A stretch of DNA of 64,000 nt, taken from positions 6,792 to 70,791 of the forward strand of contig JAHWIP010000003.1 in NCBI GenBank assembly GCA_019322375.1, read 5' to 3'. This document shows, piece by piece, positions 54,265 to 57,738 of the stretch. Each line of letters opens with the position of its first letter. Position 1 is the first letter of the stretch. The translations under genes and the position numbers were made by a program. The notes beneath the pieces are model-generated. The model searched no databases, was not told the DNA's origin, and worked only from the letters and a program-made list of their open reading frames with translations. This DNA comes from Candidatus Woesearchaeota archaeon. Lineage in GTDB: Archaea; Nanobdellota; Nanobdellia; Woesearchaeales; SM23-78.

Positions 54265-57200
54265 ATGTTTTCCTGGGCTTGTATGGCACAATCATCCATG
54301 TTTATTGGCAAGTTTGAATTTGAAGGGCCAGGCTCACACCTAACCATGACTCTTTGGCAGGGTAACAAGGCTTACCAGTTCTCAACTAATTTCATAGGGG
54401 TTTATCCTAATGACCAGACCAAGCTTAAGAAGAAAAAAACCATTTGGCCTGCAAGCAGGGAAAAAAAGATTTCTCTTGAAAAAATACTTGTGGAACAGGG
54501 CTTGGAAAAATCAGATTCTTTTGATATAAAACAGGGAGAATACGCCTTTGATATAATAGACAAAAGAATTGTGCAGCTTTTTCTGGATAAAAGAGATTAT
54601 GACAAGCTTCCGGAAGAAGCAACCAATGAGCTGATCACCTGCCACACTCAAAGCATGAAATGGGATTTTGGAATCATGCAAAAAGCAGAGATAGAGTCCT
54701 GGTTGTTAAAGATACTAAAGGAAAAGAGCAAGTTAGACCAGGAAATTGATTCCTTGTACAAGGCAATGCTCAGGACCAATAAGAAACAATTAACAGGTTC
54801 ATTAGATGATATAACGAGTTTTATTAAAAAAGATTATCATAAAGATGACTTTGATAAAAAAATTATTCCTTTGCTTTTTGAAAGCATTGGGTACAGATTT
54901 AAACAACAAGAAGATAAAAATTTATTGATTCACCTATTTCAGCAGACCAGGTATTCTTTTAAGCACAAGCATCATTATATTAATGCACAGAAAAAAGTGT
55001 TTGAGCCTTTAGACATAGAGATTGATTACCCTAAATTAACAGACAAGAAAAATGATGCTTATTATAAAAAGATATTAAAAAAGCCTTTTGGCAGAAGATT
55101 TCTTGAAAACAGCAAGCAGGTGCTTGGTGAAAAAGGCATAGATGCAATATTTTCCAAAGATAAGGAGATATACATCCTTAAATCAGAGCAGGAAGAATTG
55201 TTTAATACCTTTAAGAGACTGCTGAGCCATAAAGCAGAGTATCCTGATGTAGAGGACTATGTGGAGAGCATAAAATACCAGCTGGAAGACTTGTTCTGCA
55301 GAGTACAATACTTTAATCTTCACAGCAAGACACGCAAAGACCTTAGGAAGCTGGTTAAGGAAAAACTAGAAGAAATAGGGGGCGAAGAGAGAGACAAAGA
55401 TAATTTGAATTATGATAAAAAGATTTTTGAACGTGCACAAAGACTCAGGCAAAAAAAGCAGGACTTGGAGAGCAGGATTAAGCAGATAAAAAGCTCCAAC
55501 ACCCTGAAGTATGACTTTGACTACCAGAGAACAATGCTCTTTCTTGACATAATGCACAGGCATCCTGAAGTAAAAGGAGATGATAAGCTTAAAAAAAAGC
55601 TTAGAAAAAAGATTTATTTTGAAGGAATAAAACCAAAAGGAATGATTAATGAGCATGAATGGCTTGACCAGACACCCAGTGTTTTCCTGGACATAGAAAA
55701 ATTTCAGTATGGAACACCAGAAGAGGTTATTAATGCAATTATATCTTCTGTAAGAAGAGTAGATGGAGAATACATAGGGCGGATAGATACTGATATTGAT
55801 TCAGGAGAAAAAAATATTCTTGGTTTTCAAATAAAACACCACCATAATAATATGAACCTGATGCTATCCTCTGCTGATTTTATTAATCCAGAAAGATGCT
55901 ATACTTACTTTACCCAGGGCGACTATGATTTTAAGCATTTAAGCAAAACCAGGCTTTTTAGGACTGGCAAGGAAAAAGTGATTGTTCCAAGGCAAAAGGT
56001 GCATGAGGAGTTTATCAGGCGTTATGACATACCAGGCGTATCTATTAACACAGTCACGCTTGCAAAAATAATTTGGCCTCACCTGCTTAATCACAGATTA
56101 GCAACTCTTGTCAACAAATTATATCAAAAAGAAGGAACAGAAAAAGTATTTGAAAAATCATTTGACTATGAAGAATTAAGAGAACAAGCAGGGTTGGCCA
56201 AAAAAGGAGATAAAGAAAAAGCTTATGACATACTATATTATGGAGGGGATGATGTTGATAAACCATTCAAAGCCTGGCTTCATCCAAAAGCCAGATACAT
56301 CTTTAAAGACCTGCTGGAAGTGTGCAACACCTTTGGCATAACACCTGACCAGGCAAGCTCTAATGCTAACACAGCAGCCCATCTTTTTGAAAAAAGATTT
56401 TATGAAAAATCCGGAGGCATACTCTCTCCAGGCATCTTTAGGCAGAAACACCAGGAATTGGCCAAGGAGTTCAGAAACAAATATACTGAGTACAGAACCA
56501 AACATTTGCTAGAGCAAGGCCTGAAAATAGATTTTGAAAGAGGAGTCCAGGACAATGTCAGCCAGCTCTACTTTTCTCCAGAACTGTTCATATGCAAAGT
56601 GCTTTACCCTGATTTTCCAGGAGTAAAAGCCTTTGTTGACAGAACCATGCGCATGAAAAACCCTGAAAGAAAGGTCAGCAGGCTGCAGTATGTAAAACCC
56701 TTTGTGGTAAGCATGCTAACAGATTTATACGGAATTCATAAGATACAAGACGAGATAAAAGTGCTTGAGAAAGAAAAAGCTGAACTTCTTGAGGAAATAA
56801 GAGGAATGCCTGAAAGCCAGGAAAAACAGTCGGAAAAAGAACAAAAAATAAAGGCTTTTGGAGGGAAATGGGAAAAAATCATTGACAAATTAATAAGCAT
56901 GAATAATAAGAAGTATTTCTTTGGACAACTATTCGGAGTTAAATGCGAAAAAGTAGAGGAAAGAGTACAGCAGGCATACAAAACAATAGCAGATGTAATC
57001 AATGAGAATGATATTCATCCCTTGCAAATAAAAGGCAACTTTATCTATGCAAAAGAAAATCTTCCTGACAAGGTGCTGAGAAAAGCAGGCTTGTTCAGGA
57101 TGAGGAATATGCGAATATTTAATATGCAGAAAAATGAACTCACTTTTCATGCAGAAGACCAGTACGCAGGCTACCCGCCCAGGCTTGACCGCCCGGGTTT

Positions 57201-57738
57201 TCATTACAGCATGTTCCAGACAAGAATAATCAAAGAAGCCCTGGACAGGCTTTTGCAAAAAAAAGAAGACTATCTTGGAGTCCTTAATATTATAAACACA
57301 AGCTCAACCAAATTATCTGCAGACCTGCCAACAGCCCTTGTTAATCCTAAATTAGAAAAAAACCAGGCATTTATACAGGACTTGTTAAAATACAATAGAA
57401 CCAAGAACCGCTATGTGGGCAATGATGAAAAAGGAAAAAGAGAATTTACAGAGCACAACAAAAAATTCTACAGGCCAGATCCCAAGTACTTTATGAGAAA
57501 GTTCTATGGAAAAACAAGCAAAGACATAGATGTTCATGCTCCTATAGCCAAGCTCTTTGGAGGAATAATAAACCTGGGAGAAGACAATTCCAGTGATACA
57601 AAAAAAGAATTTTGGCGTCAAAGACAGATGTACAGGCAGCTAATATCTGAGACTATGCTGAGCAGGCAGGAATTAAAGCAGATTTTAAACCAAGAGCTTG
57701 CAGTGCATGAACCAGGCGGACAGTTTATTATTATGTAA
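54265..57738 (+). CDS. Large (about 1150 aa) lysine-rich orphan protein, function unknown
   Basis: Long ORF with normal codon structure; isolated motifs VFLDIEKF (hhhDxE), GRIDTDIDSG, ILYYGGDDVDK but no consistent polymerase/helicase motif order; no Walker A. Confidence 0.45.
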   Translation: MFSWACMAQSSMFIGKFEFEGPGSHLTMTLWQGNKAYQFSTNFIGVYPNDQTKLKKKKTIWPASREKKISLEKILVEQGLEKSDSFDIKQGEYAFDIIDKRIVQLFLDKRDYDKLPEEATNELITCHTQSMKWDFGIMQKAEIESWLLKILKEKSKLDQEIDSLYKAMLRTNKKQLTGSLDDITSFIKKDYHKDDFDKKIIPLLFESIGYRFKQQEDKNLLIHLFQQTRYSFKHKHHYINAQKKVFEPLDIEIDYPKLTDKKNDAYYKKILKKPFGRRFLENSKQVLGEKGIDAIFSKDKEIYILKSEQEELFNTFKRLLSHKAEYPDVEDYVESIKYQLEDLFCRVQYFNLHSKTRKDLRKLVKEKLEEIGGEERDKDNLNYDKKIFERAQRLRQKKQDLESRIKQIKSSNTLKYDFDYQRTMLFLDIMHRHPEVKGDDKLKKKLRKKIYFEGIKPKGMINEHEWLDQTPSVFLDIEKFQYGTPEEVINAIISSVRRVDGEYIGRIDTDIDSGEKNILGFQIKHHHNNMNLMLSSADFINPERCYTYFTQGDYDFKHLSKTRLFRTGKEKVIVPRQKVHEEFIRRYDIPGVSINTVTLAKIIWPHLLNHRLATLVNKLYQKEGTEKVFEKSFDYEELREQAGLAKKGDKEKAYDILYYGGDDVDKPFKAWLHPKARYIFKDLLEVCNTFGITPDQASSNANTAAHLFEKRFYEKSGGILSPGIFRQKHQELAKEFRNKYTEYRTKHLLEQGLKIDFERGVQDNVSQLYFSPELFICKVLYPDFPGVKAFVDRTMRMKNPERKVSRLQYVKPFVVSMLTDLYGIHKIQDEIKVLEKEKAELLEEIRGMPESQEKQSEKEQKIKAFGGKWEKIIDKLISMNNKKYFFGQLFGVKCEKVEERVQQAYKTIADVINENDIHPLQIKGNFIYAKENLPDKVLRKAGLFRMRNMRIFNMQKNELTFHAEDQYAGYPPRLDRPGFHYSMFQTRIIKEALDRLLQKKEDYLGVLNIINTSSTKLSADLPTALVNPKLEKNQAFIQDLLKYNRTKNRYVGNDEKGKREFTEHNKKFYRPDPKYFMRKFYGKTSKDIDVHAPIAKLFGGIINLGEDNSSDTKKEFWRQRQMYRQLISETMLSRQELKQILNQELAVHEPGGQFIIM

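Follow-up and report, generated by a model that had tools for sequence, protein, structure and literature searches.

Inactivated paralogs of family-B DNA polymerases (PolBs), such as PolB2 and the C-terminal half of Pol epsilon, are central to ideas on the evolution of the archaeal and eukaryotic replisomes. To our knowledge, the inactivated PolBs described to date have always lost the exonuclease, whether together with the polymerase or in its place. Pol alpha and Pol zeta represent the mirror image of a PolB with an active exonuclease and a dead polymerase, and our literature search returned no description of a PolB family of the latter type, which is to be read as absence of evidence only. 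The supplements of Kazlauskas et al. (2020) contained neither an SM23-78 genome nor Woesearchaeota entries attributable to the family described below.

The PolB2/Dpo2 group of "inactivated" PolBs (Rogozin, 2008, PMC2527604; Makarova, 2014, PMC4104785) comprises PolB paralogs that have degenerate catalytic motifs and are encoded in replication/repair neighborhoods. In PolB2, Exo I is not conserved and Exo III is missing, while one motif C Asp and a D(K/R) motif are kept (PMC7544198); its operon partners are arCOG07300 and an inactivated RadA (PMC7544198, PMC4104785). Predictions of inactivity call for caution because PolB2/Dpo2, which was predicted to be inactive, is reported to polymerize (PMC8764526), and a compensating Asp supplied by a loop has been proposed for Dpo2 (PMC7544198). 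The C-terminal PolB module of Pol epsilon, a fusion partner of an active PolB and of Zn fingers, has an inactivated exonuclease site as well as an inactivated polymerase site (PMC7544198, PMC2669801).

In the present study, we analyzed a gene in a stretch of 64,000 nucleotides of a Candidatus Woesearchaeota genome (the window), the product of which belongs to the family-B DNA polymerase superfamily, is highly divergent, and has the whole PolB architecture. Its conserved residues show a pattern opposite to that of PolB2/Dpo2, with the exonuclease residues fully kept and the polymerase carboxylates gone. Similar to the Pol epsilon module, it appears to be a polymerase-dead PolB fold in a replisome context; however, it stands alone, keeps the exonuclease residues, and has no Zn-binding C-terminal domain. 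It also differs from DnaQ, the epsilon subunit of Pol III, and from TREX1, which are small single-domain DEDDh proteins, whereas the present protein carries a DEDDy site in a full PolB chassis of approximately 1150 aa.

Homology and fold

The gene forms a complete, uninterrupted ORF of 1157 aa on the plus strand (54265..57738, stop codon included), and the encoded protein is identical in sequence to NCBI protein KY348_00535 from a Candidatus Woesearchaeota MAG. A previous sequence-only reading of this DNA had described a long, clean ORF without TM segments or a Walker A motif, and we confirmed this description: the motif scan of the 1157-aa protein found no Walker A motif, and its maximum Kyte-Doolittle value in a 19-residue window was 0.97, with no TM segment, by which a membrane protein was rejected. 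The composition had been called very basic, which overstates a mild enrichment (Lys 12.6% vs. 9.2% in the window's other long ORFs; pI 9.2 vs. a median of 8.6 for these ORFs). A pseudogene was also rejected because the ORFs are intact and length-conserved across relatives with only 14-55% identity to the target.

The protein had been regarded as an orphan, a view that did not withstand homology searches, which yielded four close homologs (39-54% identity) and, at E ≤ 1e-3, 52 representative relatives. The single sequence had no match in Pfam, NCBIfam, PHROGs, or the PDB (the last by phmmer); no Pfam family was assigned at E ≤ 0.1, and DNA_pol_B (PF00136) and DNA_pol_B_exo1 (PF03104) both missed the target. 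Among the 47 relatives in the alignment and profile on which all conservation counts below are based, PF00136 matched none and PF03104 matched 10 at E ≤ 0.01. A protein homolog search with this alignment returned the same four close homologs. A profile of only these four found no match in the PDB, and the link to PolB surfaced only with the 47-sequence profile, which matched 1qqc at E = 2.5e-16 over two collinear stretches (exonuclease and thumb) as well as Pol delta (5e-5) and E. coli Pol II (1.6e-3). Similar to 4flt and 1tgo, 1qqc is a structure of the Thermococcales/Pyrococcus PolB, namely, archaeal PolB3. In hhalign, residues 296-1132 of the query corresponded to residues 37-781 of Pol II (93% probability, 634 columns); since the alignment to RB69 gp43 was not significant (2.7% probability), the residue mapping of motifs was performed against Pol II alone.

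The AF2 model showed a complete palm-fingers-thumb fold with high model confidence, and the N-terminal, exonuclease, palm, fingers, and thumb domains follow one another in the PolB order. Structure prediction had been proposed as a check that might reveal an all-helical scaffold; the model instead contained PolB-like palm and exonuclease domains. The N-terminal domain is divided into two parts. Part 1 (aa 1-145; 54265..54699, plus strand) has beta strands at 13-49 and 92-108 in the AF2 model and 77% occupancy across the family, and part 2 (aa 411-470; 55495..55674, plus strand), with strands at 413-432 and 450-460, falls within the hhalign alignment to Pol II. Between them lies an all-helical insertion (aa 146-410; 54700..55494, plus strand), which is specific to the target's subfamily, is largest there, and yielded no structural or sequence relative in our searches. 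In comparison with archaeal PolB3, the target has approximately 330 extra N-terminal residues, including this insertion of 265 aa, and, as described above, escapes both Pfam PolB models. The thumb domain (aa 981-1145; 57205..57699, plus strand) corresponds to the second collinear stretch, 1qqc 620-735, and is where the hhalign alignment reaches Pol II residue 781.

Exonuclease domain

The predicted DEDDy 3'-5' exonuclease domain (aa 471-700; 55675..56364, plus strand) corresponds to the 1qqc profile match at chain residues 173-325, the PolB exonuclease domain, and is the best-conserved part of the protein (24/50 columns with at least 70% conservation). Exo I, VFLDIE (55681..55698, plus strand), aligns to the DIE of E. 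coli Pol II, and its D476 and E478 are invariant in 47/47 relatives. Exo II, QGDYDFKHL (55915..55941, plus strand; Y554-D555), aligns to NGDNFD of the Thermococcales PolB and has the family consensus N-x-x-Y/F-D; the D555 column holds D in 45 of the 47 relatives and E in the other 2. Lys631 (56155..56157, plus strand), between Exo II and Exo III, is Lys in every relative (47/47) and aligns to a Lys in both Pol II (GEGKSI) and the Thermococcales PolB (PKEKVY). Exo III, Y659-G-G-D-D663 (56239..56253, plus strand), is of the YxxxD type, with Y659 and D663 invariant in 47/47 and both Gly and D662 not conserved. The family-B proofreading motifs DxE (Exo I), NxxxFD (Exo II), and YxxxD (Exo III) were all found across the 47 relatives, and the proofreading exonuclease site is intact in the family.

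The sequence-only reading had singled out three peptide strings, all of which are present (residues 472-480, 505-514, and 656-666), as exonuclease-, primase-, or palm-like motifs in the wrong order. Two of the three touch genuine sites: the hhhDxE string, which is unremarkable alone because 29% of shuffles contain one, is the true Exo I, and GGDD overlaps the true Exo III. The third, DTDxD (D508-T-D-I-D; 55786..55800, plus strand), is located in an exonuclease-domain strand of the AF2 model and is not a conserved motif; the four close homologs read DVN, DFL, or DFI at this position, and D508 alone is kept. GGDD had been taken as a palm-like signature, by analogy with the GDD/YxDD of RdRp and RT in the palm beta-hairpin; however, it sits in a helix of the exonuclease domain, where homologs read YTVSD, YTVDD, and YTVND. 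Both DTDxD and GGDD are rare by chance (approximately 1%), yet neither is conserved even among the four closest homologs. The order of the conserved elements, Exo I, Exo II, K631, and Exo III, is the canonical order of family B and not an aberrant one. No RdRp or RT structure appeared among the fold hits, and a primase, RdRp, or RT was rejected, having neither fold nor motif support.

Polymerase domain

Regarding the polymerase site, the strand of the degenerate motif A, GVQDNVSQLYFSPE (56542..56583, plus strand), aligns to GLYDSVLVLDYKSLYPS of Pol II in hhalign, and the AF2 model has a strand at 760-770 followed by a helix at 773-780. At the position of the catalytic Asp, hhalign leaves a gap, and in a gap-free register against the Thermococcales motif, this position is occupied by Tyr769. 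In the 46 members covering this column, Y accounts for 74% and the remainder is F, I, V, A, or N; D or E occurs in none, such that the DxxSLYPS of active family-B polymerases, with its catalytic Asp, was not found. The motif C-equivalent beta-hairpin, HPLQIKGNFIYAK (57016..57054, plus strand), is formed by AF2 strands 918-923 and 926-930; hhalign placed VIYGDTDSTFVWLKG against LQI--KGNFIYAKEN, an alignment in which K923-G924-N925 takes the place of the PolB DTD. Neither the Y-x-DTD-S/G pattern nor any D-x-D was present at this hairpin in any family member, and 13/47 members have an Asp in its G-D-Y turn. Motifs A and C were mapped at the residue level from one hhalign alignment to Pol II combined with the predicted secondary structure.

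In the degenerate motif B, KKYFFGQLFG (aa 882-891; 56908-56937, plus strand), FFGQLFG aligns to NAFYGVLG of Pol II (hhalign). The column of the dNTP-binding Lys is not conserved family-wide, and the close subfamily has K882/K883. The surrounding fingers (aa 800-915; 56662..57009, plus strand), two long antiparallel helices at 800-846 and 852-890 in the AF2 model, are the least conserved segment of the protein, with one strongly conserved column in 107. The only columns downstream of the exonuclease domain that are at least 70% acidic are D820 in a fingers helix and E985 and D1072 in the thumb. In contrast to archaeal PolB3, which has the motif A Asp, the motif C DTD, and the conserved motif B Lys, the present polymerase site appears to have neither of the two metal-binding aspartates nor a conserved motif B Lys.

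C-terminal peptide

The protein ends in a disordered tail (residues 1146-1157, pLDDT < 50; 57700..57735, plus strand) with the sequence G-G-Q-F-I-I-M, a putative PCNA (sliding-clamp) binding peptide. Q-x-x-L-F occurs within the last 12 residues in 12/47 relatives (P ~2e-23), and the clamp motif, as QGxLF or QFILF, is shown by 12-13/47 members in a family in which several other members are truncated. The QFIIM of the target is a weaker variant than QGxLF. A C-terminal Q-x-x-L-F on a PolB fold is shared with E. coli Pol II, which ends in TGQLGLF, and with Sulfolobus PolB1, which binds PCNA2 via QLTLF (PMC3504372); these two are active polymerases, whereas PCNA binding by the target is putative.

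Genomic context

The gene is located in a chromosomal archaeal context beside replication/repair genes. RPA upstream and RadA downstream form a conserved synteny in the window and in two other genomes (L001 and L004), and the order with RPA, YdjM, the SpoIIM-like gene, and RadA is kept across genomes at 41-54% protein identity. YdjM, CARDB, and SpoIIM-like genes neighbor the target, and the RadA gene in its vicinity encodes a full Rad51/RadA (E = 7e-84). The arCOG07300 and inactivated RadA partners of PolB2/Dpo2 are missing beside the target, which, with Exo I and Exo III intact and no motif C Asp, also departs from that group in its motifs. PCNA is the immediate, divergently transcribed neighbor in two distant members (L007 and L016), that is, in 2 of approximately 9 independent contexts, and is absent from this window. 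Other family genes lie near an RFC small subunit (L005), GINS51 (L006), or a Toprim protein and HerA (L017), and one is overlapped on the same strand by a Rad50/SbcC-like ATPase gene (L015).

The gene had been described as the only plus-strand gene in a minus-strand neighborhood beside a sigma/GHKL pair. Just upstream, two other genes are also on the plus strand (52677-53210 and 53224-53682), and three small genes stand between the ORF and the GHKL gene.

Proposed function and alternative explanations

The retention of the exonuclease residues combined with the loss of the polymerase aspartates suggests that the product is probably, on balance, a PCNA-tethered, polymerase-dead PolB derivative working as a 3'-5' exonuclease in replication or repair; the exonuclease activity and the loss of polymerase activity are predictions from the motifs. 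Regarding PCNA binding and the cellular role, we infer that the palm/thumb chassis would still grip the primer-template duplex, as a PolB does in editing mode, that the flexible C-terminal Q-x-x-(L/I)-(F/M) peptide would tie the protein to PCNA, and that the exonuclease would then act in trans on 3' ends that are mismatched, damaged, or unextendable, removing them in the course of replication or recombinational repair. More tentatively, and with rather less than even confidence, we suggest that DPANN archaea (Woesearchaeota/Nanoarchaeota) may have turned a full-length PolB into a dedicated PCNA-riding exonuclease with a dead polymerase, which cleans or proofreads 3' ends in trans for other polymerases.

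The degenerate polymerase site, the proximity of family genes to PCNA, GINS, RFC, and RPA, and a large lineage-specific helical insertion that could serve as a protein-binding platform would also fit a non-catalytic scaffold that organizes PCNA, GINS/CMG, and RPA in the replisome with an irrelevant or vestigial exonuclease, for which the C-terminal half of Pol epsilon is a precedent (PMC7544198, PMC2669801). We consider such a scaffold unlikely. The exonuclease residues of Pol epsilon C and PolB2 are degenerate as well (PMC7544198), unlike those of the present family, in which the Lys and the complete DEDDy set are invariant in relatives at 14-26% identity to the target, a degree of conservation that is hard to explain without catalysis. 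It is quite unlikely that the protein is a still-active replicative or translesion polymerase with non-canonical catalytic residues, as in PolB2/Dpo2. The complete fold of the polymerase domains and the Asp in the motif C turn of some members speak for such activity, as do Dpo2 and primer-independent PolBs, which are without the first motif C Asp (PMC7544198; PMC8764526). However, the Asp of motif A and one Asp of motif C are retained in Dpo2 and piPolB, whereas the present family has neither: no conserved acidic residue occurs family-wide at or near motif A or C, where the target has Y769 and K-G-N, and neither the motif B Lys nor the fingers are conserved.

The sequence-only reading had offered a novel nucleic-acid enzyme or a mobile-element-derived protein, and the former fits a nucleic-acid enzyme probably derived from PolB. 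Archaeal viruses, casposons, and plasmids commonly encode family-B polymerases (PMC4104785), a lineage-specific insertion of two genes (sigma-like and GHKL) lies 1.8 kb upstream of the ORF, and an integrase is encoded approximately 3.4 kb from the family gene on the L014 contig. A mobile-element or viral origin of this polymerase-like gene is nevertheless very improbable because the synteny is chromosomal and conserved. The GC content of the gene resembles that of its surroundings, and no terminal-protein, integrase, or capsid genes were found near it in the window. The suggested search for homologs in viral contigs found no relative in IMG/VR with a 9-sequence alignment, which was also run on genome contigs, and a tblastn search of GenBank phages with the exonuclease domain yielded nothing beyond noise (E ≥ 1). 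There was no PHROG match either.

If the proposed PCNA-tethered exonuclease is correct, the PolB fold would have reached a new evolutionary outcome in this family, with the polymerase discarded and the exonuclease retained. Extrinsic (trans) proofreading, or the processing of 3' ends on PCNA, would then be indicated for genome-reduced DPANN archaea. The family would represent an archaeal functional analog of bacterial DnaQ on a polymerase chassis and a previously undescribed component of the replisome or repair machinery. A Pfam-invisible "hypothetical protein" of approximately 1100 aa would thereby gain a testable function, and the family may fill a gap in inventories of DPANN replication genes.

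Gene start

The true start is probably Met7 at 54283, which gives a protein of 1151 aa; homologs align from Met7 on, and NCBI annotates the same start. A TATA-like box, TATTTAAA (54251..54258, plus strand), was read from the sequence approximately 25-30 nt upstream of the ATG at 54283, a spacing that is consistent with a leaderless archaeal transcript.

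The gene and its relatives

The open reading frame at 54265..57738 (+) is long, clean, and intact, as the sequence-only reading had described it, and its 1157-aa product contains all three peptide strings quoted there, with neither a Walker A motif nor a transmembrane segment. In NCBI, the same protein is KY348_00535 of a Candidatus Woesearchaeota MAG, where the annotation starts at Met7 (1151 aa); residue numbers herein count from the first ATG of the 1157-aa form. Because homologs align to the protein only from Met7 onward and a TATA-like element, TATTTAAA, is present approximately 25-30 nt 5' of the Met7 ATG (region 54251-54285 of the window), translation probably starts at 54283 and not at the first ATG at 54265, and the transcript may be leaderless. 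The description of the protein as very basic was overstated, with Lys accounting for 12.6% of residues versus 9.2% in other long ORFs and a pI of 9.2 versus a median of 8.6.

The single sequence gave no matches in Pfam, NCBIfam, PHROGs, or the PDB, and no model in Pfam or NCBIfam covers the family. The protein is not an orphan as proposed, since a word-indexed search returned four full-length homologs (39-54% identity), all in archaeal MAGs. An exhaustive HMMER profile search over 1.84 billion representatives yielded 52 relatives at the cut-off of E <= 1e-3, nine of them at <= 1e-30. Members with a taxon name belong to Woesearchaeota or Nanoarchaeota, and the contigs of distant members carry archaeal ribosomal protein, LSM, RIO1, GINS, and PCNA genes.

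Homology to family-B DNA polymerases

A profile of 47 aligned relatives matched archaeal family-B polymerases in the PDB (1qqc, E = 2.5e-16). The match comprises two collinear blocks, one in the exonuclease domain (chain residues 173-325) and one in the thumb (620-735). Pol delta, E. coli Pol II, and herpesvirus UL30 were matched more weakly. With hhalign, the family profile aligned to E. coli Pol II at 93% probability, query 296-1132 being paired with Pol II 37-781 across 634 columns. An AlphaFold2 model built from the family alignment was confident (mean pLDDT 89.9, pTM 0.88), and its top 50 Foldseek matches in the PDB were all B-family polymerases. Based on these sequence and structural matches, the protein is a bona fide, very divergent family-B DNA polymerase (PolB) homolog with all domains in canonical order; homology thus places it within the PolB superfamily, and its nearest kin by both sequence and structure scores are archaeal B3-type enzymes. 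Pfam DNA_pol_B_exo1 was matched by 10 of the 47 relatives and DNA_pol_B by none, and the protein does not have the catalytic motifs that define an active PolB. A helical insertion at aa 146-410 (265 residues), for which searches gave nothing informative, is specific to the subfamily (family occupancy 0.32).

An intact exonuclease site and a degenerate polymerase site

Regarding the three motifs called polymerase-like in the sequence-only reading, only hhhDxE (SVFLDIEKF; D476, E478) is a true motif, namely Exo I, which is invariant in 47/47 relatives. GGDD (ILYYGGDDVDK) overlaps the true Exo III, Y659-x3-D663, which is also invariant in 47/47, and its own Gly-Gly-Asp is replaced in homologs (YTVSD, YTVDD, YTVND); DTDxD (GRIDTDIDSG), inside the exonuclease domain, is not conserved beyond D508. 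Two further elements separate Exo I from Exo III. One is Exo II (N-x-x-Y/F-D), whose D555 is conserved in 45 relatives and replaced by E in two; the other is an invariant Lys631, which probably corresponds to the 'Kx2h' auxiliary lysine found in proofreading polymerases. The resulting series Exo I, Exo II, Lys, Exo III matches the family-B arrangement exactly, contrary to the wrong order that had been claimed. In shuffled sequences, hhhDxE occurred by chance in 29% and DTDxD and GGDD in about 1%; rarity in a single sequence is a poor guide here, as conservation selects the opposite motif set.

All residues invariant in the 47 relatives are exonuclease residues, and, of the 50 strongly conserved columns, 24 fall in the exonuclease domain, one in the fingers, and two in the palm segment containing motif C. 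The motif A strand is recognizable (GVQDNVSQLYFSPE versus GLYDSVLVLDYKSLYPS in Pol II by hhalign), with a gap at the catalytic Asp, a position that presumably corresponds to Tyr769 in a gap-free register against the Thermococcales motif; this column is Y (74%) or F/I/V/A/N across the family and never acidic. Strands 918-923 and 926-930 are predicted to form the motif C beta-hairpin, and hhalign paired LQI--KGNFIYAKEN with VIYGDTDSTFVWLKG of Pol II, such that DTD is replaced by K-G-N in this protein and by x-G-(D/N/K/R) in the family; D-x-D occurs at this hairpin in none of the members. Motif B retains its aromatic/Gly part (FFGQLFG versus NAFYGVLG in Pol II), and the column of the dNTP-binding Lys is not conserved. 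C-terminal to the exonuclease domain, only three columns are at least 70% acidic, D820 (fingers helix), E985, and D1072 (thumb), and the palm sheet has none. Such conservation points to selection for exonuclease catalysis and to the probable loss of nucleotidyl transfer.

Proposed role and alternatives

From the homology and fold, the conserved residues, the enriched C-terminal motif, and the genomic context, we infer that a polymerase-dead PolB chassis keeps its grip on primer-template DNA, that a C-terminal peptide may tether it to PCNA, and that the intact DEDDy site may act in trans to trim 3' termini that are mismatched, damaged, or blocked. These 3' ends could be made by another polymerase or arise from end processing with RPA, RadA, or Rad50. 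Regarding the tether, the 12 C-terminal residues of the model are disordered, and 12/47 relatives have Q-x-x-L-F within their own last 12 residues (P ~2e-23 versus internal windows), in variants such as QGTLF, QGKLF, QGRLF, QQLLF, and QFILF; the protein itself ends in QFIIM. Peptides of this form bind the clamp in E. coli Pol II (TGQLGLF) and PCNA2 in Sulfolobus PolB1 (QLTLF; PMC3504372). PCNA is the immediate, divergently transcribed neighbor of the distant members at loci L007 and L016.

The proposed loss of polymerase activity calls for caution in view of Dpo2, which had been predicted to lack activity and was subsequently found to polymerize (PMC8764526; PMC7544198). A non-canonical active polymerase is disfavored here by the lack of any conserved palm carboxylate. 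A purely structural scaffold, as in Pol epsilon C, is likewise disfavored because the exonuclease residues are invariant; a closer likeness to Pol epsilon C was rejected, as both of its sites are dead and its module is fused to other domains. Identity with PolB2, which has a degenerate exonuclease and other operon partners, was also rejected (PMC7544198, PMC4104785); one motif C Asp survives in PolB2 but none in the present family. An origin from a mobile element, as suggested in the sequence-only reading, is disfavored by the syntenic gene order and by the absence of relatives from the viral collections searched (IMG/VR viral contigs and GenBank phages).

Woesearchaeota have been reported with B7 (Pol II-like) PolBs (PMC7544198), and, therefore, the present family would be an additional PolB paralog. 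A literature search found no published description of an exonuclease-active, polymerase-dead PolB family, which is absence of evidence only.

Genomic context

The contig is archaeal because it carries an archaeal RNase P RNA (32269-32573 (-); Rfam RF00373, 121 bits), and the window also contains RadA/Rad51, RPA, Hjc, and tRNA-intron endonuclease genes. The order of an M23/SLT giant protein, RPA, CARDB, YdjM, the PolB homolog, a SpoIIM-like gene, and then RadA is shared by the window and the relatives' loci L001 and L004. Near other family genes are an RFC small subunit (L005), GINS51 (L006), and a Toprim protein with HerA (L017). In the Woesearchaeota MAG locus L015, the family gene (101-3403) overlaps a Rad50/SbcC-like ATPase gene on the same strand (3357-5411 (+); AAA_23, SbcC_Walker_B), which suggests an operon link to double-strand-break processing. 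Overall, these neighbors fit replication and recombinational repair, in a setting that is chromosomal and archaeal and not that of a mobile element.

The gene had been described as the only plus-strand gene in its neighborhood, beside a sigma/GHKL pair; other plus-strand genes are present nearby, and it does not directly adjoin the GHKL gene. Downstream are a 346-aa SpoIIM-like membrane protein (57768-58808 (-)), syntenic in L004, and an 829-aa Peptidase_C25 (gingipain-like) protein (58923-61412 (-)). An RNase J/beta-CASP nuclease gene is convergent and directly 3' of the family gene in L014 (2905-4224 (-)) and L016 (8313-9623 (-)).

At 48092-50200 (-), this archaeal genome encodes a protein of 702 aa in which the bacterial sigma-70 regions 1.2, 2, 3, and 4 are present, adjoining a 743-aa GHKL ATPase (HATPase_c_3; 50267-52498 (-)). 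This block, between RPA and the CARDB gene, is missing there in the syntenic loci L001-L004 and, thus, looks like a lineage-specific insertion. Since the DPANN-type contig L007, with a distant family member, encodes a 282-aa protein with weak Sigma70_r2/r4 matches (2586-3434 (+)), sigma-like genes may recur in these archaea.

The giant murein-hydrolase-domain protein (M23 peptidase, NLPC_P60, SLT; 1257-1444 aa) is encoded at 42866-46639 (+) in the window, with syntenic orthologs in L001 (2195-6529) and L004 (2882-7138), and an Amidase_2 (N-acetylmuramoyl-L-alanine amidase) match was found elsewhere, within 1-42850. Enzymes that degrade peptidoglycan would not be expected in an archaeon; their targets may be hosts or prey that are bacteria.
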